From NCBI RefSeq assembly GCF_036365525.1, contig NW_027140453.1, positions 248,001-312,000 of the forward strand: a stretch of DNA of 64,000 nucleotides. Reading direction: 5' to 3'. Under the pieces are notes generated by a model. That model searched no databases. It was given only the letters and a program-made list of their open reading frames with translations, and was not told the origin of the DNA. Positions within the stretch are counted from its first letter, which is position 1. Each line of letters begins with the position of its first letter. The DNA is from Heterodontus francisci (Eukaryota). Made by a program: the position numbers and the translations under genes. Below, piece after piece: positions 16,494-61,870 of this stretch.

Positions 16494-18464
16494 TTAAACA
16501 TCCATCAAGCTATTCCTTTCTCTTTCACTTTCTCCATCACTTTCTCCATCAGCTATCACTTTCTCCATCAGCCTGCCATGGGGAACCTTATCAAACGCCT
16601 TACTGAAGTCCATGTATATGTCATCGACAGCCCTTCCCTCATCAATCAACTTTGTCACTTCCTCAAAGAATTCTATTAAGTTGGTAAGACATGACCTTCC
16701 CTGCACAAAACCATGTTGCCTATCACTGATGAGCCCATTTTCTTCCAAATGGGAATAGATCCTATCCCTCAGTATCTTCTCCAGCATCTTCCCTACCACT
16801 GACGTCAGGCTCACCGGTCTATAATTACCTGGATTATCCCTGCTACCCTTCTTAAACAAGGGGACAATATTAACAATTCTCCAGTCCTCCGGGACCTCAC
16901 CCGTGTTTAAGGATGCTGCAAAGATATCTGTTAAGGCCCCAGCTATTTCCTCTCTCGCTTCCCTCAGTAACCTGGGATAGATCCCATCCGGACCTGGGGA
17001 CTTGTCCACCTTAATGCCCTTTAGAATACCCAACACTTCCTCCCTCCTTATGCCGACTTGACCTAGAGTAATCAAACATCTGTTCCTAACCTCAACATCC
17101 GTCATGTCCCTCTCCTCGGTGAATACCGATGCAAAGTACTCGTTTAGAATCTCACCCATTTTCTCTGAGTCCAAGCATAACATTCCTCCTTTGTCCTTTA
17201 GTGGGCCAATCCTTTCTCTAGTTACCCTCTTTCTCCTTATATATGAATAAAAGGCTTTGGGATTTTCCTTAACCCTGTTTGCTAAAGATATTTCATGACC
17301 CCTTTTAGCCCTCTTAATTCCTCGTTTCAGATTGGTCCTACATTCCCGATATTCTTTCAAAGCTTCGTCTTTCATCAGCCGCCGAGACCTTATGTATGCT
17401 TCCTTTTTCCTCTTAGCTAGTCTCACAATTTCACCTGTCATCCATGGTTCCCTAATCTTGCCATTTCTGTCCCTCATTTTCACAGGAACATGTCTCTCCT
17501 GCACGCTAATCAACCTCTCTTTAAAAGCCTCCCACATATCACATGTGGATTTACCTTCAAACAGCTGCTCCCAATCTACATTTCCCAGCTCCTGCCGAAT
17601 TTTGGTATAGTTGGCCTTCCCCCAATTTAGCACTCTTCCTTTAGGACCATTCTCGTCTTTGTCCATGAGTATTTTAAAGCTTACGGAATTGTGATCACTA
17701 TTCCCAAAGTAGTCCCCTACTGAAACTTCAACAACCTGGCCGGGCTCATTCCCCAACACCAGGTCCAGTATGGCCCCTTCCCGAGTTGGACTATTTACAT
17801 ACTGCTCTAGAAAACCCTCCTGGATGCTCCTTACAAATTCTGCTCCATCTGGACCTCTAACACTAAGTGAATCCCAGTCAATGTTGGGAAAATTAAAATC
17901 TCCTATCACCACCACCCTGTTGCTCCTACATCTTTCCATAATCTGTTTACATATTTGTACCTCTATCTCACGCTCGCTGTTGGGAGGCCTGTAGTACAGC
18001 CCCAACATTGTTACCGCACCCTTCCTATTTCTGAGTTCTGTCCATATTGCCTCACTGCTCGAGTCCTCCATAGTGCCCTCCTTCAGCACAGCTGTGATAT
18101 CCTCTTTGACCAGTAATGCAACTCCTCCACCCCTTTTACCTCCCTCTCTATCCCGCCTGAAGCATCGATATCCTGGGATATTTAGTTGCCAATCATGCCC
18201 TTCCCTCAACCAAGTCTCAGTAATAGCAATAACTTCATACTCCCAGGTACTAATCCAAGCCCTAAGTTCATCTGCCTTACCTACTACACTTCTTGCATTA
18301 AAACAAATGCACCTCAGACCACCAGTCCCTTTATATTCATCATCTGCTCCCTGCCTGCTCTTCCCCTTAGTCACACTGACTTCATTATCTAGTTCCTTAC
18401 AGGCTTTTGTTACTACCTCCTTACTGTCAACTGACCTCAATTGGTTCCCATCCCCCTGCCACAT
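16494..18464 (-). CDS. CR1 ORF2 (APE endonuclease + N-terminal RT), 3'-truncated
   Basis: CFNARS, IAITETWL, YRPP, GDFN, LDLVL, SDHN (APE); NYRPVSLTS, QHGF, DFSKAFD (RT). Last ~20 codons are not LINE-derived. Confidence 0.92.
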   Translation of the reverse strand: MWQGDGNQLRSVDSKEVVTKACKELDNEVSVTKGKSRQGADDEYKGTGGLRCICFNARSVVGKADELRAWISTWEYEVIAITETWLREGHDWQLNIPGYRCFRRDREGGKRGGGVALLVKEDITAVLKEGTMEDSSSEAIWTELRNRKGAVTMLGLYYRPPNSEREIEVQICKQIMERCRSNRVVVIGDFNFPNIDWDSLSVRGPDGAEFVRSIQEGFLEQYVNSPTREGAILDLVLGNEPGQVVEVSVGDYFGNSDHNSVSFKILMDKDENGPKGRVLNWGKANYTKIRQELGNVDWEQLFEGKSTCDMWEAFKERLISVQERHVPVKMRDRNGKIREPWMTGEIVRLAKRKKEAYIRSRRLMKDEALKEYRECRTNLKRGIKRAKRGHEISLANRVKENPKAFYSYIRRKRVTRERIGPLKDKGGMLCLDSEKMGEILNEYFASVFTEERDMTDVEVRNRCLITLGQVGIRREEVLGILKGIKVDKSPGPDGIYPRLLREAREEIAGALTDIFAASLNTGEVPEDWRIVNIVPLFKKGSRDNPGNYRPVSLTSVVGKMLEKILRDRIYSHLEENGLISDRQHGFVQGRSCLTNLIEFFEEVTKLIDEGRAVDDIYMDFSKAFDKVPHGRLMEKVIADGESDGESERERNSLMDV

Positions 18465-19411
18465 TAGTTTAAACCCTCCCCAACAGCGTTAGCAAAAGCA
18501 CCTCCAAGGACATTGGTTCCAGTCCGGCCCAGGTGTAGACCGTCCAATTTGTAATAGTCCCACCTCCCCCAGAACTGGTCCCAATGTCCCAAAAATCTGA
18601 ACCCCTCCTTCCTGCACCATCTCTCAAGCCATGCATTCATCCTGACTATTCTTTCATTTTTACTCTGACGATCACGTGGCACTGGTAGTAATCCTGAGAT
18701 TACTACCTCTGAGGTCCTACTTTTTAACTTGGCTCCTAACTCCCTAAACTCTGCTTGTAGGACCTCATCCCGTTTTTTACCTATATCATTAGTGCCTATG
18801 TGCACAATGACAACTGGCTGTTCACCCTCCCCCTTTAGAATGTTCTGCAGCCGATCTGAGACGTCCCTGACCCGTGCACCTGGGAGGCAACATACCATTC
18901 GGGAGCCTCGTTTTCGACCACAGAACCGCCTATCTACTCCCCTTACAATCGAATCCCCTACGACTATAGCCCTTCCACTCTTTTTCCCGCCCTTCTGAAC
19001 AGCAGAGCCAGCCACGGTGCCATGGACCTGGCTACTGCTGCCTTCCCCTGGTGAGCCATCTCCCTCAACAGTATCCAAAACGGTATACTTGTTTTGGAGG
19101 GAGATGACCGCAGGGGACTCCTGAGCTGCCTTCCTGCTCTTTCTCTGCCTTTTGGTCACCCATTCCCTTTCTCCCTCAGCAATCCTAATCTGCGGTGTGA
19201 CCAATTCACTAAACGTGCTATCCACGACCTCCTCAGCATCGCGCATGCTCCAAAGTGAGTCCATCCGCAGCTCGAGAGCCGTCATGCGGTCTAACAAGAG
19301 CTGCAGCTGGACACACTTCCTGCACGTGAAGGAGTCAGGGTCATCAGCCATGTCCCTGAGCTCCCACATTGAGCAAGAGGAGCATGATACGGGTCTGAGA
19401 TCTCCTGCCAT
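18464..19411 (-). CDS. CR1 ORF1 (zinc finger/leucine zipper + SGNH esterase)
   Basis: CSSC...CRKC zinc finger; VVGDS, PGA, HIGTND and DGLH SGNH blocks. Confidence 0.92.
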   Translation of the reverse strand: MAGDLRPVSCSSCSMWELRDMADDPDSFTCRKCVQLQLLLDRMTALELRMDSLWSMRDAEEVVDSTFSELVTPQIRIAEGEREWVTKRQRKSRKAAQESPAVISLQNKYTVLDTVEGDGSPGEGSSSQVHGTVAGSAVQKGGKKSGRAIVVGDSIVRGVDRRFCGRKRGSRMVCCLPGARVRDVSDRLQNILKGEGEQPVVIVHIGTNDIGKKRDEVLQAEFRELGAKLKSRTSEVVISGLLPVPRDRQSKNERIVRMNAWLERWCRKEGFRFLGHWDQFWGRWDYYKLDGLHLGRTGTNVLGGAFANAVGEGLN

Positions 19412-19590
19412 TTTTAATCTTAAGTTTAAACTTAGTTAAATGAAAAAGGAACGAAAAGTTTTTACCAATCACAATAAAACCAGAGAAATCGAAAAAGCCT
19501 TACCTTATAAACACCCCACCGAGTCCTTTTTTTTTGGTTAGAGGAGGAGGGCGGGTGGGAGACACTACAAGTGTGGTATCTCGGGTTCAG

Positions 19591-20553
19591 AAACCGCCCA
19601 AATATATAGTGTTTTACTTACCCAGCAGCCCCCTGGCCTCCGCGGAAAAACAAAAGGAAATTAAATTTACTTTCAAACTGACTTTCCCAGCTGCTCACTC
19701 GCTCACACTCTGCTCCCGAAAAAGCTGCTGCACTGAAAGGAAAGTTATTTTAAACCGCCCAAATATATAGTGTTTTACTTACCCAGCAGCCCCCGGCCTC
19801 CGCCGAAAAACAAAAGGATTTTAAATTTACTTTCAAACTGACTTTCCCAGCTGCTCACTCGCTCACACTCTGCTCCCGAAAAAGCTGCTACACTGAAAGG
19901 AAAGTTATTTTAAACCGCCCAAATATATAGTGTTTTACTTACCCAGCAGCCCCCTGGCCTCCGCCGAAAAACAAAAGGATTTTAAATTTACTTTCAAACT
20001 GACTTTCCCAGCTGCTCACTCGCTCACACTCTGCTCCCGAAAAAGCTGCTGCACTGAAAGGAAAGTTATTTTAAACCGCCCAATTATATAGTGTTTTACT
20101 TACCCAGCAGCCCCCTGGCCTCCGCCGAAAAACAAAAGGAAATTAAATTTACTTTCAAACTGACTTTCCCAGCTGCTCACTCGCTCACACTCTGCTCCCG
20201 AAAAAGCTGCTGCACTGAAAGGAAAGTTATTTTAAACCGCCCAAATATATAGTGTTTTACTTACCCAGCAGCCCCTGGCCTCCGCCGAAAAACAAAAGGA
20301 TTTTAAATTTACTTTCAAACTGACTTTCCCAGCTGCTCACTCGCTCACACTCTGCTCCCGAAAAAGCTGCTGCACTGAAAGGAAAGTTATTTTAAACCGC
20401 CCAAATATATAGTGTTTTACTTACCCAGCAGCCCCCGGCCTCCGCCGAAAAACAAAAGGAAATTAAATTTACTTTCAAACTGACTTTCCCAGCTGCTCAC
20501 TCGCTCACACTCTGCTCCCGAAAAAGCTGCTGCACTGAAAGGAAAGTTATTTT
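19591..20553 (-). repeat. Six tandem ~161-bp monomers forming the CR1 5' UTR
   Basis: aaaccgccca unit starts at 19591, 19752, 19912, 20073, 20234 and 20394; copies are near-identical. Confidence 0.95.
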
Positions 20554-26940: not shown

Positions 26941-27037
26941 TGTCTTCTTCATGTCGAAGACATGTTCACACTGCAGTAGATAAACCCAACAGGATACAGA
27001 GCTGCAGGCTTTTATCTGAAACAGGTGTTTCTGTTGG

Positions 27038-27076
27038 TGTTTTTGTTGAACTGCTCCATCTCTCTGAGTCACTGTG
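27038..27076 (-). other. 23-RSS of V1
   Basis: CACAGTG (27076-27070), 23-nt spacer, ACAAAAACA (27046-27038). Confidence 0.95.
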
Positions 27077-27569
27077 CAGACTCCAGGCACAGAAATACAG
27101 CGCCGAGCGATTCTCCTGCAGGCTGGAGGACTCCAGGTTGAACTGGGAACCAGTCGGTCGTTTGGCAGTGAAACCCTCCACCGTCCCTTCTGAGTTCACA
27201 CTTGGTGTAACTGCGGAGTAAAACATCAGCCGCAGCTCCTTCCCCAGGTCCTGTCTGTACCAGAACATGTAACCGCTACTCTGGCCCTCCACACGGCACT
27301 CCAGTCCCACTCCCTCCCCAGGAAATCTGGAGACGGCGGTGGGAGTCTGGCGGACCCTCGCTGAGATCGCGCCTGAAGGAAGAGACCGGGAGAGAAGAAG
27401 GTCAGTGAACAGGGACAATCTGGGATGTGAAGAATGAAGGAAGGAGAGAAAGATAGAGAGAAAGAAAATAAGAAAGAGAGCTGTTAACACAAACAATGGG
27501 GGTGTGGGGTGGAGGTGAGAAAGATCCCTTACTTTGAAATAAGACCATGAGACTCAGTAACAGATACAT
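27077..27569 (-). CDS. TRBV: V1: TCR beta V segment, TRBV30-like (CAWS), inverted; leader 27569-27533, V exon 27372-27077
   Basis: MYLLLSLMVLFQ/SAISARVRQTP...LECRVEG...WYRQ...LMFYS...YFCAWSL; GT-AG phase-1 intron; intact RSS. Confidence 0.9.
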
Positions 27570-29417: not shown

Positions 29418-30311
29418 ATGACTGTGTCTCACCTCTGCGTTGTGTTGCTGGTGTTAAGGGGTAAGGTGGACCTCGACTGGGAGATGTCAGTCATCTTCAC
29501 TGCTCTTTCCCTGTGTGACCCCATTGGGAGTTTACCCCCTTACAAGGCACCGTCACTGTGATTATTAATTTAGCTGCTCTCTTTCTCTTTTTGTATCCCT
29601 TTCTCTATCTCTCTTTCTCTCTGTCTAACAATAAATGTTCCTCTATGTCTGTCCCTCCCAGTCTCCCTGTCTCTCTGTCTCTCTTACTCTCTCTCCCTGT
29701 CCTCTTAGCTCCTTCATGTCTGTTGCCGATGTCTAGAATGTTGCTGTTTTTCTCTCTCTGTCTGTGCTTCCCTCTCTCTCTCTCTCTCTGTCTCTGCTTC
29801 TCTCCTTTTCTCTCACTCTTTTTCACTCTATGTCTCTCTCTCTCTTTGCAGCTCCCCGTCTCCCACCTCTCCCTTCTTACGAAGAAACACGGGACATTTA
29901 GGGCACACAGCAGGTCATTCAGCCCATCGTGCCTCTCCCCTCTTCGTGGCCGATGTCAATTTAAACATTGTCCCTGGGTTTATCTCTCTCTCTCTCTCTC
30001 TCTGTTTTACAGATGTGGGGGCCGTGTTGATGCAACAGATTCCCGCTTCCATATCCTATTCCCCAGGCTCTCCAGTCAGTATCCAGTGTATTTACACAAA
30101 GGCAGATGCTGGCTCCGATATCCACTGGTACCCGTGGCATCCGGACCGTGAGCCCGAGAACCTTTTCTATTCCACCTCTGCCGGAACAGTCATTCCCTCC
30201 AGAGAGGTTGGCGGTTTCACCGCCAGGAGACCCAGCAACACCCATTTTTCCCTGGAGTCCACCAGCCTGTGGGTGAATCAATCAGCCGTGTATTACTGTG
30301 CCTGGAGTCTG
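29418..30311 (+). CDS. TRBV: V2: TCR beta V segment, divergent CAWS type; leader 29418-29460, V exon 30013-30311
   Basis: MTVSHLCVVLLVLR/DVGAVLMQQIP...IQCIY...HWYPW...LFYS...YYCAWSL; GTAAGG donor and tttacAG acceptor. An in-frame upstream ATG exists at 29388. Confidence 0.85.
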
Positions 30312-30350
30312 CACAGTGACTCAGAAAGGTGCCAGATTTCAGCAAAAACT
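30312..30350 (+). other. 23-RSS of V2
   Basis: CACAGTG, 23-nt spacer, GCAAAAACT. Confidence 0.9.
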
Positions 30351-31493
30351 CTAAAGGGGGAGGAAAGCACTTGTGGGAGATGAACCCGTCTGTCTATCTC
30401 AGTGTCTTTCTGTCTCTCTGACTATCTGCAGGTTTCTGTGTCNNNNNNNNNNNNNNNNNNNNNNNNNNNNNNNNNNNNNNNNNNNNNNNNNNNNNNNNNN
30501 NNNNNNNNNNNNNNNNNNNNNNNNNNNNNNNNNNNNNNNNNNNNNNNNNNNNNNNNNNNNNNNNNNNNNNNNNNNNNNNNNNNNNNNNNNNNNNNNNNNN
30601 NNNNNNNNNNNNNNNNNNNNNNNNNNNNNNNNNNNNNNNNNNNNNNNNNNNNNNNNNNNNNGGTTATTTGCACTATTTATCTATCTATTTACCTTGATTA
30701 TATATATATTTGTCATCGATTTATCTCTCCGTCTCTCACCTCTCTAAATATGCATCCACCATACATCTGACGTTTATCATCTATCTAACACCATTATTTA
30801 CACCATACCAGTTTAATTATTGATGCATCATGATTTGTATTTTACTGATAGTTTCACCTTCTTGCTCTCCTTCGACTCAGAGTACATCAATACATTATGA
30901 ATTATTAAAAATGCTGCAGCAATGTGCTCAGATCCTTCTCGTTCAGGCAGCCTCTACCTGTAAAGAACAGATTCCGAGGTGGGGTAAATGGGTTTATGGT
31001 CCTGTTGAATGAGCTGTCGGTGGTATGTGACAAGAGTTACACATAGCTCCCTATTGTACATGTCCACGATGATTCATACAATGCAAAAGTGAGACACCTC
31101 CCCAGAGAGGTCTCTCACTGGAAGACCTGCCTCCTGACGGCGGTTTGAGCATCTGTTCAAAACAGTTAACCCACTTCTTCATGACACTGTCGCTTTTCAA
31201 AGTATCTAAGATTTCACCCCAATGTAAAACATAACCCTTGAATTGTCGTTTAGCACAGGGAAAAGAGCTACCCAATGCAACACCAATCAGACACAAGCAA
31301 CGAGAGCCAGATACAGACGGGAAGCATTTCCTTATTCAAGCTCCTTCCGACCAGTGGGTGTTATTATTCTGTCATACCCAGAAGTGAGGGGTCAGAAGGA
31401 AACCCTGCTTCCAGTGCTGTCATTTCCACTCTCTGCTTTATCTTCAGCCGCCTGATATTGGTTCATGAACAGATTCAGCCCTCAGTCTGCAGG

Positions 31494-32309
31494 ATGCAGT
31501 TAGTCAAACTCTTCCTAATCGTCTGTTCTCTTCTTCCATGTAGGTATTCATCGTTCATAAAGATACCTGTGCTAAAATACATGCTGTGTTTTCATTCACT
31601 ACTAACTTCTATCAAACTAGATTGATAAAACATCATTGCAGTCGATTTTCTGTCATTTCTTAAACTACTTACTTTACTTTCACTGTCAATAATATTTACT
31701 TAATGAAATTTATGACTGAATAAAAATTACTTATATATTCGTGACGCTACTATACCTATCTTTAACCGATAAGTTTTCCCTAATTCTGGATTAATTTGTC
31801 TGTCTCATATCACTTGCTACATTATTTTACAATCTCTATATCTATCTGTGTATTATCTATATATCTACAAATATATCATTTAACGATATATTGTCTGCCT
31901 ATATAGTTATCTAGTATTATCTACTTATCTATTTGGATAGTTATAGTTGGTTATCATATGTCACAATATGTTCTAAACTTTTTAAACTATTCTCCTTATT
32001 TCTCAAGGCAAAACTCTAGCAGAGGTGATACACCAGTGGCCAACTCTGGTGGTGGGGAAGAGAGGTGAACCAGCAGAATTAAACTGTTACCAGAATGACA
32101 GTAGTAAGAGCGTTATGCTGTGGTATCGGCAGTATGCCGGGCAGGGGCTCACCCTAATGGGTCATTTTATTAATGGAATCCCAGTCACATACGAAGGAAA
32201 ATTTGAGGAGGAGGTGAAGATTTTAAGGCCCAAGGAGAGACGATGCAGCCTGAGGGTCCTCAAGGTTAAGGCTGCGGATGCGGCAGTGTATTACTGTGCA
32301 GCCAGTGAG
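31494..32309 (+). CDS. TRBV: V3: TCR beta V segment; leader 31494-31539, V exon 32008-32309
   Basis: MQLVKLFLIVCSLLP/CKTLAEVIHQWP...LNCYQ...WYRQ...YEGKF...DAAVYYCAASE. Confidence 0.9.
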
Positions 32310-32348
32310 CACAGCGCTGCAGACTGCCTTAGTGCCAGTGCAAAAACC
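32310..32348 (+). other. 23-RSS of V3
   Basis: CACAGCG, 23-nt spacer, GCAAAAACC. Confidence 0.92.
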
Positions 32349-32697
32349 AACAGGGTGAACAACACAACTGACTGACAGACAGGAGCAGTGACAATGGTTC
32401 CCTGCCACACCAGCCATTTTCCAAGCTGGTGATTCCCGGATTCCTGAACCTTCATCAAGGGCTGAATGACAGGGAATAGCAGAAGGTACGAGGAAGAGAG
32501 AGAAGGAAAGAAAGAGATGTGCCTCAGATCCCCTGCAAAATTTCAAAGTCCTCGTCTACACTGTTTAATTTCTGGCACTGTGTATGTTAAAACTAAATCA
32601 CTGTCGCTGTCTCAGACTTGATTAAATAATAGGTTAATTAATGATCTAAATAAGACAGAAAGTTAACATCACCATTGTGAAGTGATCGATAGAGTAT

Positions 32698-36821: not shown

Positions 36822-37556
36822 ATGTCTTTCAGTTTCATCGTCTTTGCTATTTCCCTTCTGGCGCTGAGTAGGTTAAAATTCTGTCCCAATCAATCTTCTA
36901 CATTTGTTTAACTGAAAGGGATGATTAATAATCTCTACAAAAACTGAGCGGCGGTGACTTGTGAAATCAGTAATCGATTATTTCATATCAGACAGTGAAC
37001 TCATTCATCTGTCCCCTAGTTCGGGAAGACAAGTGTTATTAATATGATGTTAACTCTTTAATGTTTGCACCCACTTGCAAACTTGTGGATTCCACGATTC
37101 TATTTTACAGTTGTAAAGATCCAGGTGCTTGCAGGAAATTAGGACACAGACCGAATTTCCGTCGTTAATTTGGTGCAACACCGACGTCCATCGTCTCAAT
37201 TGTAACTCCATCGATACTAGTTCATTCACTCTAATTTCTCTTTCTAGGTGTTTGCCGGGGTGATGTGATACATCAATGGCCTCAGTCACTGGCTGTTAAA
37301 CAACCAGGACCCGTGGAAATTAACTGTCTGCAGAAAGGAACAGTTCGCAACTACATGTACTGGTATCGTCAGTCCCCCGGCGGAGGATTCCTGTTAATCG
37401 GGTTTACCTATACAGCAGGTGAACCTCAGTATGAAGATGGATTTAAGAGCGGGTTTGTTATTACCAGGACTCTGAACAATAAGAAATCCACTCTGACGAT
37501 CGAGAGTGTGAACGCCACGGACGAGGCGGTGTATTTCTGTGCAGCTGGTGATGGGA
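36822..37556 (+). CDS. TRBV: V4: TCR beta V segment; leader 36822-36867, V exon 37248-37556
   Basis: MSFSFIVFAISLLAL/SVCRGDVIHQWP...INCLQ...MYWYRQ...YEDGFKSGF...DEAVYFCAAGDG. Confidence 0.9.
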
Positions 37557-37595
37557 CACAGCGGTTCAGAGTCATTGGCCGCCTTGACAAAAACC
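37557..37595 (+). other. 23-RSS of V4
   Basis: CACAGCG, 23-nt spacer, ACAAAAACC. Confidence 0.95.
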
Positions 37596-37789
37596 CTCAC
37601 ACGTCTCCCTTCAAACGGGTGCATTTAACCCAGCATTCCGTGAAGAGCAGCCCTGGCTGATCGGATGCGGATCTGCATCTGTTCAGTGCCCGTTCGAGTG
37701 GCAGAACGCCCATGTTCTAACTCCCCACAACCTCCAGACAGGCAACACACACTGTCTGTGCCCACACCTGAATAATGGTTCATAGAACG

Positions 37790-42171: not shown

Positions 42172-42627
42172 ATGTATCTGTTACTGTGTCTGATAATCTT
42201 GTTTCATTGTAAGTGAATGTGAAATGCAAAAACTATCGGTAATAACTGTCCCCTCTTCTCCCTGTCTCCCTTTCATTCCCAGAAGTTCCCTGTTTACTGA
42301 TCTCCTCCTCTCTCCATCTCTCTCCCAGATGTGAACTCACAGACTATCCTCCAGACTCCCGCTGCTGTCTCCAGATTTCCCGGGAAAGGAGTGGAACTGA
42401 GGTGCACAGTGGAGGGGAGCAGCAGTAACATCTACATGTACTGGTACAGACAAGAGCCAGGGAAGGAGCCGCTGTTGATGTTTTACTCCAATACTGCTAA
42501 CTATGTGGATCCAGAGGGGACGGTGGACGGTTTTACCGCCAAGAAACTGAATAAGTACGAGTTCAAACTGGAGTCCTCCAACCTGCGGGAGAATCACTCA
42601 GCCATGTATTTCTGTGCCTGGAGTCTT
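42172..42627 (+). CDS. TRBV: V6: TCR beta V segment, TRBV30-like; leader 42172-42208, V exon 42329-42627
   Basis: MYLLLCLIILFH/YVNSQTILQTP...LRCTVEG...MYWYRQ...MFYS...YFCAWSL. Confidence 0.92.
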
Positions 42628-42666
42628 CACAGTGACTCAGAGAGATGGAGAAGTTCAACAAAAACC
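42628..42666 (+). other. 23-RSS of V6
   Basis: CACAGTG, 23-nt spacer, ACAAAAACC. Confidence 0.95.
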
Positions 42667-43007
42667 CCAAAGGCAGCAGGAAACACCTGTGTCAGATAAA
42701 ACCAGTCGGTGCTGCTTCCTGTTGGTTTTTTTTTTATCATTGGGAACATGTTTCTCACAAGAAGACAGTGCGGATTTAAATAGAAAGTGACAGGTTAGAT
42801 ATAGAAGCACAGGGGAATTGTGGAATAGACTTTGCAGAAATGATATCAGAACACAGAGGTTAAAGTTATCAAGATAGTTTGAACATCGGGGGATCTTTGC
42901 TCCAGAAAGGAGAAACTGAAGGGTAAGCATTCAACGGTCTTAGAGAGATTATTACAGATTTTAATATGTGAAATGAAGATCAGATAAACACAGATAGATA
43001 GATAGAG

Positions 43008-44281: not shown

Positions 44282-45114
44282 ATGTTGCATGAAGTTCTCT
44301 GTTTAATCTTGATGGCTGCATTCTTTCCACGTAAGTGAAAGTCAGAAACTGTGTAGAATAATGTATTGTAATGTCAGCGGTGATTCTGTCTGGAACACTC
44401 CTGTGTCTGAGTCTCACTCCACAACACTTGAGCTCAAAGTCAAAAGTAACACCCCAGGTGTCAGGGCTGAGGGAGTGCTGCACTGTCGCAGAGGCAGGAC
44501 TGAGGGAGTGCTGCACTATCGCAGAGGCAGTACTGAGGGAGTGCTGCACTATCGCAGAGGCAGTATTGAGGGAGTGCTGCACTGTCGCAGAGGCAGTACT
44601 GAGGGAGTGCTGCACTATCGCAGAGGCAGTACTGAGGGAGTGCTGCACTGTCGCAGAGGCAGTACTGAGGGAGTAACTACATTGGTTGCAAAGCCTTTCT
44701 GATGTCTTGAGGTCCTGAACGGCGCTATATTAATGTCAGCCCTTTCTTTCTTGCAATGCAGCTCCTGCTCCAATCCATTATTGACTGAAATAATAATTTA
44801 ATCGATGTTCCATCCCACAGGAATACTCGCCTCCTATGTGGAACAGTCGCCCTCTATCCTATCGATTGCAGCAGGAGATTCAACAACACTCAGATGCACG
44901 CTGACCAATACTGGCTGTACATTAATGTACTGGTACAGACAACAACCAGACAGGGCACTGGAATCTCTGTTCTATTCTGCGACAGAAGGGTCTGTTACAA
45001 ATTACACGTCTGAGTCATTTAATGCAGTCAGATCCAGCAATGCACTGTTTACTTTGGCACTGAGAAACGCTGCTCCATCTCACACCGCTGTCTATTTCTG
45101 TGCTTGCAGTATCG
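44282..45114 (+). CDS. TRBV: V7: TCR beta V segment with extra cysteines; leader 44282-44330, V exon 44821-45114
   Basis: MLHEVLCLILMAAFFP/RILASYVEQSP...LRCTLTNTGCTLMYWYRQ...LFYS...YFCACSI; GTAAGT donor and cccacAG acceptor. Confidence 0.88.
44400..44750 (+). mobile_element. Internally deleted Deu-type SINE with about six 34-bp tandem units, in the V7 intron
   Basis: ctgagggagtgctgcactgtcgcagaggcagta units at 44468-44672; tail cattggttgcaaagc...ggcgctatat. Confidence 0.75.
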
Positions 45115-45153
45115 CACAGTGTTTGAGAAAGCGGATTCGCAGCTGCAAGAACC
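45115..45153 (+). other. 23-RSS of V7
   Basis: CACAGTG, 23-nt spacer, GCAAGAACC. Confidence 0.88.
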
Positions 45154-45172
45154 TGCAGCGGATGAACGGGAG

Positions 45173-45390
45173 TTCAGTGCTCATCATCCACCGGCAGGGG
45201 GCAGCAGTAGATTGAATGTCAGTGTTCATCTTCCACCAGCAGGGGCAGCAGTAGATTGAATGTCTGTCCTCATTTTCCCCCGACAGGGGGCAACAGTAGA
45301 TTGAATCGCTGTGCTCATCTTCCACCGGCAGGGGGCAGCAGTAGATTGAATCTCAGTGCTCATTTTCCACCAGCAGTTGGCAGCAGTGGA
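45173..45390 (+). promoter_or_regulatory. Five 45-bp tandem units, each carrying a CTCF-like core motif
   Basis: CCGGCAGGGGGCAGCA at 45191 and 45325; variants at 45236, 45280 and 45370. Confidence 0.6.
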
Positions 45391-48400: not shown

Positions 48401-49390
48401 CCTTTCTGCCGCCGTAATACTCTCCTTGATTAACAATGCCACACCCCACCCCCACCCCCCTCTTTTACCATCTTCTCTGTTCTTACTGAAAGATCTAAAT
48501 CCCGGAACCTGCAGCATCCATTCCTGTCCCTGCTCTACCCATGTCTCCGAAATGGCCACAACATCGAGATCCCAGGTACCAACCCATGCTGCAAGCTCAC
48601 CCACCTTATTCCGGATGCTGCTGGCGTTGAAGTAGACACACTTTAAACCAAGTTCTTGCTTGCCAGTGCCCTCTTGCGTCCCTGTAACCTTATCCCCTAC
48701 CTCACTACTTTCAACAGCCTGTACACTGGAACTACAATTTAGGTTCCCATCCCCCTGCTGAATAAGTTTAAACCCCCCCGAAGATCACTAGCAAATCTCC
48801 CCCCCCAGGATATTGGTACCCCTCTGGTTCAGGTGAAGACCATCCTGTTTGTAGAGGTCCCACCTACCCCAGAAAGAGCCCCAATTATCCAGGAAACCAA
48901 AACCCTCCCTCCTACACCATCCCTGCAGCCACGTGTTCAACTCCTCTCTCTCCCTATTCCTCGCTTCGCTAGCACGTGGCACGGGCAAGAACCCAGAGAT
49001 AACAACTCTGTTTGTTCTCGCTCTAAGCTTCCACCCTAGCTCCCTGAATTTCTGCCTTAAATCCACATCTCTCTTCCTACCTATGTCGTTGGTGCCTATG
49101 TGGACCACGACTTGGGGCTGCTCCCCCTACCCCTTAAGGATCCCAAAAACACTATCCGAGACATCACAAACCCTGGCACCTGGGAGGCAACACATCAACC
49201 GTGAGTCTCTCTCGTTCCCACAGAACCTCCTCTCTGTTCCCCTAACTATGGAGTCCCTAATGTCTAATGCTCTGCTCCTCTTCCCCCTTCCCTTCTGAGC
49301 AACAGGGACAGACTCTGCACCAGAGACCTGTACCCCATTGCTTACCCCTGGTAAGTCGTCCCCCCCCCAACAGTATCCAAAACGGTATAT
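45426..49390 (-). mobile_element. Near full-length CR1 LINE (second subfamily), 5'-truncated within ORF1, EN domain interrupted by a SINE
   Basis: ORF1 esterase remnants (HIGTND, DGLH) at 48773-49390. ORF2 frame from 48766 to about 48311, resuming at about 47950 and running to 45506 with a complete RT. 3' UTR present. Confidence 0.95.
47951..48310 (-). mobile_element. tRNA-derived V-SINE (HE1-like) with (TCTAA)n tail, inserted in CR1 ORF2
   Basis: tRNA-like head ggcacagtggttagcactg; V-domain ctgcgtgggttttctccgggtgctgcggtttcctcccaca; imperfect TSD aggtcta/aggtcca (47945-47951, 48311-48317). Confidence 0.88.
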
Positions 49391-52789: not shown

Positions 52790-53113
52790 ATGTGAACTCA
52801 CAGACTACCCGCCGCTGTCTCCAAATTTCCTGGTGAGCAGGTGAAGCTGAAATGCACCGTGGACGGTAGCAGTGACCCTTACATATACTGGTACAGACAA
52901 TACCCGGGGAAGGAGCTGCAGCTGATGTTTTACTCCCTAACTGCACAAGGGGTGAACTCAAAGGGGACGGTGGAGGCTTTCACCACCGAAAGACCGACTG
53001 ACTCCACGTTCGACCTGGAGTCCTCCAGCCGACGGGAGAATCATTCGGCCGTATATTCCTGTGCCTGGAGTAATCACAGTGACTCAGAGAGATGGAGCAA
53101 TTCAACAAAAACC
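52790..53113 (+). pseudogene. V9: TRBV30-like pseudogene; 11-nt FR1 deletion, no clear leader, intact RSS 53075-53113
   Basis: tcctccagact is missing relative to V6, giving TGA at 52834-52836; YSCAWSN; CACAGTG-23-ACAAAAACC. Confidence 0.88.
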
Positions 53114-53629
53114 CGAAAGGCAGCAGGAAACACCTGTGGAGGGTAAAACCGTTCGGTGCCTCGACCTGCTGTTCCCTTTTGCAGAGTGAAAGTGTTTATT
53201 ACAATAAAAAGAGCTGAGTTAATATTGTAGTGAGATTTTAGATTTACAGGTACTGGCGAGGGTGCAATGAACGATGAATAAGGATGTCACGAGATCTCAG
53301 AATGTAACTATCTGGAATCAATGACAATAATCTGGATTTTTTATGCACTGACCCTGTGTTTACCTTCTGCACAGGGACAGCAGAGGGGGTTCCAGGACCA
53401 TGGAATGGACAATGGCTTTGAAAAGGATTTAGTGAGAAAACGGAAAGAGCGGGAGGTCTGCAGATCCAGCTTGATATACATGAACAGGACAAGGACACCC
53501 ACTTTGTTAGAGAAGGGAAGATAGTGTATGTGTGTGACAGAGAGAGATCTAGTGAGAGAAAGCAAAAACGACAGACAGAGTTAAAGAGACTGAGACAGAG
53601 AGGGAGACAGAGATAGAGACAATAAGGGG

Positions 53630-60019: not shown

Positions 60020-60473
60020 ATGTATCAGTCATTGGCTCTGATAATCCTTTTGCACTGTGAGTGAGTCTGAAATACCAACGTTTTCTCTAATAACCTTCCT
60101 ATACTCATTCCCTCTTCCTTTCATTTCCTAGAAATCCCCTGTTTACTGACCTCTTCCTCTTCCCCACTCTCTCCCAGGTGTGAACTCGCAGACTATCCTC
60201 CAGACTCCTGCCGCTGTCTCCAGAGTTGTGGGGGAGGAAGTGGAACTGAAGTGCACTTTGGAGGGGAGCAGTACCCTTAACATGTTCTGGTACAGACAAT
60301 ACCCGAGGAAGGAGCCTCAGGTTATGTTTTACTCCACGGGTACTAATCACAAAAATCCAGAGAAGGAGGTGGACGGTTTCACTGCCGAGAGACCAACTGG
60401 CACCCAGTTCAACCTGGAGTCCTCCAGCCTGCGGGAGAATCACTCGGCCGTGTATTTCTGTGCCTGGAGTCTT
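60020..60473 (+). CDS. TRBV: V10: TCR beta V segment, TRBV30-like; leader 60020-60056, V exon 60178-60473
   Basis: MYQSLALIILLH/CVNSQTILQTP...LKCTLEG...WYRQ...MFYS...YFCAWSL. Confidence 0.92.
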
Positions 60474-60512
60474 CACAGTGACTCAGAGAGATGGAGCAGT
60501 TCAACAAAAACC
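60474..60512 (+). other. 23-RSS of V10
   Basis: CACAGTG, 23-nt spacer, ACAAAAACC. Confidence 0.95.
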
Positions 60513-61870
60513 CCAAAGGCAGCAGGAAACACCTGTTGGACATACAATAGCGCGGTATTTCCACTTGAATTGATGCAGGGCTATCATATTTTTGACAATA
60601 AGAATAGACGGGTGAGAATAAAATTGAGAGCACAGGTGCAGAGGCGAAGAGACTGGCCTCTTTCTGTGCTGATAAGCTTTCTATCTTTCTATGAAAGATT
60701 AAGAAGGGTGGCACCACACTGAGAGGTTTTCACTATCAGGAGAGAATATCAGAAAAACGATTGGGGTTTTATCCACTAACACGGTGTCTTCTTTCACTCA
60801 GATGATCAAACACACAACTCTCTTTGTTAGGAACAAAGGAAGAGGAGTAGGCCATTCAGCCCCTTTGTCCCGTTACATAGAAACAGGAGGAGATCATTCT
60901 GCAAATCTCGTAAATATGCTCTGCACCCTAATAAGGAGCCTCACATTCTCCCTTAAGTGTGGTGGCCAGAACTGGACGCAATACTCCAGCTGGAGCCTAA
61001 CCTGAGCTTTATAAAGGTTCACTGCTTTTGTACTCAATACCTACATTTATGAAGATCAGGATCCCATCTGCTTTACTAACCACTCTCTCAACATGCCCTG
61101 CCACCTTCAAAGATCGATGCACATGCAGCCTCAGGTCCACTGTTCCTTGCAAACTCTTTCGAAATCTGCCTTTTAGTCTATATTGCCTTTGTCTATCCCT
61201 TCAGCCAAAATGCATCACAGCGAATTTCTCCAAGAAGAGGGCCCTATAGGACCAGTAACACACAACTGCCTGGAAAACTGTTTATGAAGAATTCAGGAGG
61301 AGGTCTCTCAGTCTTTTGGAGCCTCTTACAAAGGAACATGAGGAGGCCAATTACTCCCCTGCCTCATTGCGCACAAACAGGAGGAGGTTATTGATCAATG
61401 TAGAGCTTGTTAGTAGGAATTGGAGAAGGGTACTTAGTCCCCCTTGAGCCGATTAATATGAACAGGAGTAAGCCATTCAGCCCCATTGAGCCTGTTGCAC
61501 AGGAGCAAGAGGAGGCCGATTCAGTTCCCCCCCTCAGTCTGCACAGGTACAGGAGGAGGCCCATTCAGCACCTCGAATCTGTTAAATAGGAAATGGGTGA
61601 GGCCATTCAGCCCCATCGAGCCTGTTACATCTGAAGAGCCATCCACATGTGACAGTTTCGCTCAGGCTCTTGTATCCAATTGGGAAATTCAGATGTGGAG
61701 ATCCGCGTTTCTGATTGGCAAATACAAAAAGAGCAATTGCGAATTGACAACCATGCTAATTCCGATTGGTTGAATGAGAGAAGGGGGCGTGACCAAACGT
61801 CCCTTACTACCTTGCTTTCCTCAATGGTTTGTAAAGATGACTTGATGAATAGGGAAAGGTCCAGTTAAAG

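Follow-up and report, generated by a model that had tools for sequence, protein, structure and literature searches.

A candidate programmed -1 ribosomal frameshift at the ORF1/ORF2 junction of esterase-type CR1 retrotransposons of a shark

We suggest that CR1 elements, long interspersed nuclear elements (LINEs) of the shark Heterodontus francisci, produce an ORF1-ORF2 fusion protein by programmed -1 ribosomal frameshifting at the slippery heptamer U_UUA_AAC, which lies at the very end of their first open reading frame (ORF1). The suggestion is based on a 64,000-nucleotide stretch of the 6.0-Gb genome (contig NW_027140453.1, positions 248,001 to 312,000; referred to as the window, to which all coordinates refer) and on the comparison of its CR1 copies with related loci. 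From these sequences we estimate its probability at about 0.8. In anatomy, the junction places ORF2 in the -1 frame relative to ORF1, and the heptamer, the adjoining stop codon and a run of G residues starting 11 nt downstream (+11) are conserved at the DNA level. The AUG codon situated at the junction of the window copy is not conserved, and the linker frame is open from the heptamer to the endonuclease.

Anatomy of the CR1 ORF1/ORF2 junction

The element is an esterase-type CR1 LINE, a copy of which, with ORF1 and ORF2, occupies 16.5-20.5 kb of the window on the minus strand; all CR1 features described below are read on that strand. ORF1 (18464..19411) encodes 315 amino acids (aa), with a Cys-rich N-terminus and an SGNH esterase domain (PF13472, E value 4e-14), and ends G-L-N-stop. 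The nearest named relatives of its product come from sharks and rays, and named bird, turtle and lizard proteins are also among its relatives. The ORF2 frame (16494..18488), positioned at -1 to ORF1, comprises a linker of about 56 codons, an AP endonuclease (EN; PF03372) from approximately 18302 and the start of a reverse transcriptase (RT; PF00078). The window copy is cut at 16556, inside the RT, and up to this point shares 98.3% identity with L170, a full-length sister copy, which is intact and contains a 315-aa ORF1 followed by a 987-codon frame beginning at the heptamer. The family is young; the 40 scored of its 1110 candidates show 96-100% identity.

The heptamer (DNA TTTAAAC, 18467..18473) spans the last two ORF1 codons in the X_XXY_YYZ phase and adjoins the ORF1 stop TAA (18464..18466), which is TAA or TAG in other lineages. 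An ATG in the ORF2 frame (18462..18464) overlaps this stop, forming TAATG (18466-18462), and is found at this place only in the lineage of the window copy, designated A. A G-rich block, GCAGGGGGATGGGAACC (18443..18459), begins 7 nt after the heptamer. The core of this block, GGGGGATGGG (18447..18456), has its first base 11 nt downstream of the heptamer; it is kept at the DNA level and constitutes a candidate stimulator without a conserved fold. The window also contains a copy of a second CR1 lineage (B) with the same heptamer (48766..48772), no in-frame ATG before the endonuclease, and the same G-rich block (48742..48758), matching that of the lineage A copy. In this particular copy the heptamer is followed by TTA, and TAA stands there in 14 of the 17 lineage B contexts sampled. 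The first-pass annotation of the window, made from the sequence alone, had described an in-phase TTTAAAC right before the ORF1 stop, an ORF2 in the -1 frame, an overlapping TAATG and a G-rich block 7 nt downstream that recurs in a second CR1 subfamily; all of this agrees with the coordinates given above, and both EN and the start of RT do lie in the -1 frame.

The -1 frame opens at 18488 (the preceding stop is at 18491-18489), and the ORF1 stop ends the 0 frame as soon as the heptamer has been read. Seventeen of 20 representatives have a stop in the -1 frame at a distance of 1-5 codons upstream of the heptamer, and in none of the 20 does this short stretch contain an ATG. The two frames therefore share little beyond the heptamer itself. 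As other canonical in-phase heptamers are rare (9 of 6215 codon positions in six lineage representatives), the presence of one at the very last codon position is unlikely to be due to chance.

Conservation of the heptamer

Loci were collected in four ways: by junction DNA, by the Pfam esterase family (with 20 further places listed for it), by a distant ORF1 protein and by a pattern of the endonuclease start. Since collection by junction match favours a matching heptamer, the sets selected without the junction were weighed separately. With an ORF1 profile, 140 distinct ORF1 ends were identified across all loci retrieved, and the exact TTTAAAC was present in 121 of these contexts; the remaining 19 comprise 6 metagenome matches unlike CR1 junctions and otherwise single decayed or indel-shifted copies. 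For lineages with at least six contexts, the exact heptamer was found in 30/31 (F), 27/29 (C), 17/19 (A), 16/17 (B), 14/15 (D) and 6/6 (H). Loci selected through Pfam carried it in 27 of 30 cases (2 unscored, 1 changed). Among the 24 loci selected by the endonuclease pattern, 8 lacked the ORF1 end, and 12 of the 16 that possessed it had the exact heptamer, the other 4 carrying one or two changes.

The junction extends well beyond this genome. Eight of 45 metagenome loci (L091, L093, L094, L096, L097, L098, L101 and L108) are CR1 junctions with TTTAAAC-TAG, and wherever the contig extends far enough the G block follows at equal spacing; L092 is decayed and most of the other metagenome loci end before the junction. 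We call loci of the L096 kind "bird-type", because the L096 ORF1 shares 68% identity with a named protein of a swallow. A small EN tree groups the shark with the bird-type loci. At the protein level, 200 of 262 homologs extend to the domain end and 104 of these 200 finish L-N, the named ones belonging to sharks, rays, a chimaera, a mormyrid fish (teleost), frogs, a snake, lizards, turtles, a tortoise and two birds. In contigs of four other organisms (contigs at least 80% alike only), no variant reached 3% at any position across 18465-18473, and the neighbouring positions were variable. A ~45-bp island composed of the heptamer, the stop and the G-run is much more widespread in other organisms' contigs than its flanks. 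None of the runs carrying the junction is listed as RNA, the comparison being one of contigs only.

The conservation of the junction is seen at the DNA level. Identity between lineages at fourfold sites is 0.09-0.59, i.e. near saturation. In 7 shark lineages, the heptamer TTA is the one single-codon column among 15 invariant columns of six-codon residues (Leu, Arg, Ser). With four bird-type loci added (11 lineages), TTA and AAC are the sole single-codon columns among the 7 invariant-residue columns, and the synonymous variation which the first-pass annotation had regarded as telling against frameshifting did not appear. The T preceding TTA, which is the first base of the heptamer and a third codon position, is invariant under five different amino acids; no other of the 34 columns with at least three amino acids in these 11 lineages has an invariant third base. 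On the ORF2 side, apart from the heptamer, only the first Gly of the G block among 34 columns is encoded by a single codon; of 141 variable columns, only the one preceding that Gly has a fixed third base, a G. G residues occupy +11 to +15, +18 and +19 in 13 of 13 lineages, with one free position in the motif.

The protein tails agree with this picture. The residue before L-N is compatible with an NNT codon in 103 of 104 proteins, and in non-redundant L-N tails it is limited to NNY codons 17 times and to NNR codons never. In a distant group ending x-G-N, x can end in G in all 11 non-redundant tails (nine of them Q), as G_GGA_AAC would require. A slip-compatible tripeptide occurs near the C-terminus in 51 of 81 distant non-redundant tails, compared with 185 of 1164 background windows; as the distant tails are kin, p-values derived from them overstate the support.

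K-N or F-L/F-F is found close to the end of some distant tails. Among the distant esterase ORF1 proteins, P0131, P0135, P0150, P0162, P0165 and P0146 end G-N or K-N, or carry F-L or K-N nearby. The G-N, K-N and F-L ends are compatible with other slippery heptamers, as far as translated sequences can tell. Scans of viral and prokaryote-genome contigs gave no DNA relatives of the proteins ending x-G-N, K-N or F-L/F-F, and the x-G-N/K-N/F-L covariation is for this reason a protein-level observation.

The ORF2 start codon and the open linker

The linker between the heptamer and the endonuclease is 37-72 codons long and is open in most copies of lineages A, B, C, D and F, as well as in 3 of 6 copies of H. 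The position of the first in-frame Met differs between lineages: index 3 in A (17/17), 9 in D (10/13), 16 in F (18/23) and 4 or 22 in the bird-type loci. No in-frame AUG precedes the endonuclease in 15 of 16 scored copies of B, 15 of 18 of C, 3 of 3 of H and 1 of 1 of E. The first Met in B, C and E has index 85, 80-133 and 67, respectively, which is beyond the first conserved endonuclease motif. The overlapping UAAUG is not conserved, being confined to lineage A, and in two other organisms 95% and 77% of the contig depth carries a different base at the position that creates the AUG (the sequence reads TAG and the ATG is lost).

Proposed mechanism and the downstream G-run

Under the frameshifting hypothesis, a minority of ribosomes would slip back one base at U_UUA_AAC. 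The tRNA-Leu and tRNA-Asn would slip in tandem from UUA AAC to UUU AAA and decoding would resume at CUA, so that the junction would read G-L-N and then L-M-W-Q-G-D-G-N. The product, an esterase-linker-endonuclease-RT fusion of ~1,300 aa, would supply the ORF2 activity. The majority of ribosomes would terminate and release the ORF1 protein (ORF1p), resulting in a high ratio of ORF1p to the ORF2 protein (ORF2p), as in gag-pol. Since a domain search found no protease domain in the CR1 element, the fusion would likely stay whole. A search for fused ORF1-ORF2 proteins gave 3 matches among 8000 scored candidates, all of them host gene models, which is weak evidence either way.

Several observations weigh against this hypothesis. 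A slip-compatible C-terminal tripeptide is lacking in 30 of the 81 non-redundant distant relatives of ORF1, and the x-G-N group, known here from proteins alone, is probably a single clade, so that a p-value based on it is overstated. The 80 nt downstream of the heptamer give folding z-scores from -1.75 to +1.74 in the 13 lineages (0.17 in the window copy), folding of the alignment yields no structure, just 2 of the 13 lineages show a three-tier quadruplex pattern, and an Rfam search of the junction returned two weak unrelated matches only. TAATG, the motif used by the SART1 element, is present in 17 of 17 scored lineage A contexts. Moreover, parts of PMC5009743 describe human L1 ORF2 as starting independently of AUG, so the absence of an AUG alone cannot exclude reinitiation.

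The expectation of the first-pass annotation that a stimulator would be found downstream was thus not borne out as regards a fold, since no conserved pseudoknot, hairpin or three-tier G-quadruplex emerged. A conserved partner complementary to the G block was found neither locally nor at long range, in searches made with no dedicated pseudoknot program. Two candidate structures were considered and rejected. The first was a G-quadruplex as a general stimulator; the high G4Hunter scores reflect the G-run, and even the two-tier pattern is limited to 6 of 13 lineages. The second was base pairing at long range between the G block and a block of C-rich sequence in the 5' untranslated region (UTR); it is attractive in A, B, E and F, but its upstream motif could not be located in C, D or the bird-type loci. 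We tentatively consider an unstructured G-run acting through a bound protein and helped by the adjacent stop. This is the weakest part of the proposal and, judged on its own, somewhat doubtful.

Alternative explanations

The best-surviving alternative, although in our opinion an unlikely one, is termination-reinitiation independent of AUG, as in human L1. Ribosomes terminating at the end of ORF1 would restart at a nearby codon, and the conserved island would hold post-termination ribosomes. This fits the conservation of the stop directly after the heptamer and the failure to find a structured frameshift stimulator, and the sections of PMC2881922 devoted to L1 and SART1 present reinitiation as the model for both. 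The place of the AUG is also taken by a near-cognate codon in B, D and G (ATT) and in F (GTG). However, C, E, H and the bird-type loci have codons after the stop (GTC, GTT, AAT, GGT, GAC, GCT, GAT) none of which is near-cognate, and reinitiation leaves unexplained the exact in-phase X_XXY_YYZ, the T fixed under five different amino acids and the constant -1 phase.

Far less probable is that ORF2 of lineage A is translated through UAAUG coupling of the SART1 type, the heptamer being a relic or a consequence of protein constraint on the ORF1 C-terminus. Reinitiation at TAATG had been named as the alternative in the earlier annotation, and the motif is indeed there in every scored lineage A context; it is weakened as an explanation by the restriction of the AUG to that lineage, as the AUG is missing from the sister lineages and altered in most of the contig depth of the two other organisms mentioned above. 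Protein constraint finds some support in the invariance of L-N in the ORF1 alignment (the rows of which were picked among L-N enders), but it would permit CTN or TTG and AAT, which are used freely at other invariant Leu and Asn columns. UAAUG coupling may coexist with frameshifting in lineage A.

Equally improbable is a non-translational cis-element (a TATA-like internal promoter, a branch point or splice acceptor, or a packaging site) that is slippery by coincidence: TTTAAA is TATA-like, every lineage seen has an AG close to the stop and the ~45-bp island is shared far beyond its flanks, but the AG has no preceding polypyrimidine tract, no joint was found within a 96-bp stretch in 4 of 4 runs (contigs only, their RNA status being guessed), a shorter ORF2 RNA would still have no AUG in B, C, E and H, and codon phase would be irrelevant. 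Furthermore, owing to cis preference a shorter ORF2-only RNA would be copied without ORF1, and 16 of the 24 loci selected by the endonuclease pattern keep the ORF1 end, unlike copies expected from such an RNA.

Relation to known systems

The -1 frameshifting of retroviruses and coronaviruses shares with CR1 the heptamer, its phase and a downstream enzyme ORF at -1, and some retroviral shift sites have a stop directly after the heptamer. CR1 differs in having no conserved pseudoknot or hairpin and in being a non-LTR (long terminal repeat) retrotransposon. Parts of PMC5009743 count U_UUA_AAC, together with G_GGA_AAC and A_AAA_AAC, among the heptamers most prone to shifting on mammalian ribosomes. 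The same parts describe the stimulator of the arterivirus PRRSV, which involves nsp1beta and PCBP, as a short unstructured motif, CCCANCUCC, located 11 nt after the shift site. The CR1 G-run starts at the same +11 offset, which suggests, by analogy only, a protein-bound stimulator; the CR1 motif is G-rich, the shift site is different and a CR1 binding protein is purely putative.

Among non-LTR retrotransposons, TRE5-A and TRE3-A of Dictyostelium require a -1 frameshift for ORF2 according to parts of a review (PMC5911963), the sources of which are sequence descriptions from 1992 and 1998; these elements differ from CR1 in clade and in ORF1. SART1 and human L1 have a bicistronic RNA whose ORF2 depends on ORF1 translation (PMC2881922, in part). 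SART1 uses UAAUG coupling, and lineage A of CR1 likewise has TAATG; in contrast to both elements, CR1 as a whole keeps the slip heptamer and not the AUG. The canonical vertebrate esterase-ORF1 CR1 clade, as presented in sections of PMC13343379 and PMC3905857, has the same SGNH esterase ORF1, an APE-RT ORF2 and a 5' subunit array.

The word frameshift is absent from the portions covered of PMC13343379 (a 2026 survey of the vertebrate CR1 group) and PMC3905857. CR1 frameshifting was not found in those of PMC2734521 and PMC3747384, nor was CR1 in the first 300,000 of the 449,034 characters of PMC5009743. Literature searches yielded no paper on CR1 frameshifting; the original CR1 descriptions, which lay outside the search, may have proposed it. 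Viruses and LTR elements already provide examples of the mechanism.

The production of ORF2p by LINEs has so far been explained by reinitiation, in the parts of PMC2881922 concerning L1 and SART1 and likewise in those of PMC5009743. If frameshifting is confirmed, a major vertebrate LINE clade would have the retroviral solution. The annotated ORF2 protein would then change, having no true N-terminal Met and carrying the esterase tethered to EN-RT, and CR1 retrotransposition assays would need the native junction. The junction would also provide a natural shift signal that has long been conserved and has no RNA fold.

Other features of the element and the window

Upstream of ORF1, the window copy has a 5' array (19591..20553) of six tandem 160-bp monomers of the same CR1, 97% alike, which resembles the promoter arrays of other LINEs. 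Next to it, in the 5' UTR (19559-19582), a palindromic stretch is followed by a C-rich block; this arrangement is common to the distant lineages A, B, E and F and was not found in C and D. The 5' UTR before the ORF1 ATG (~19415-19506) resembles a small intron, with a donor-like site at ~19498-19506, a U-rich tract and a branch-like TTAACTAA, the last also present in C, E and F. The intron-like stretch is present in all 28 lineage A rows compared. A second TTTAAAC (19424-19430) lies 12 nt before the ORF1 ATG. The idea that TTTAAAC is an element common to both ORF starts was rejected, as this copy (19430-19424) varies within lineage A.

Elsewhere in the window, frames resembling V segments were observed at 26966-27553, 29709-30383, 31986-32375, 37235-37660, 42301-42699, 44802-45215, 52796-53146 and 60150-60722. 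They carry WYRQ and YxCA motifs followed by a recombination-signal-like sequence, and would probably be antigen-receptor V segments, so that the window may be a T-cell receptor V cluster. Near-identical copies of the window region are present on other contigs. At a further locus, L172, three CR1 junctions of three lineages (at 203, 1991 and 3691) lie within 3.5 kb and are likely the result of nested insertions.

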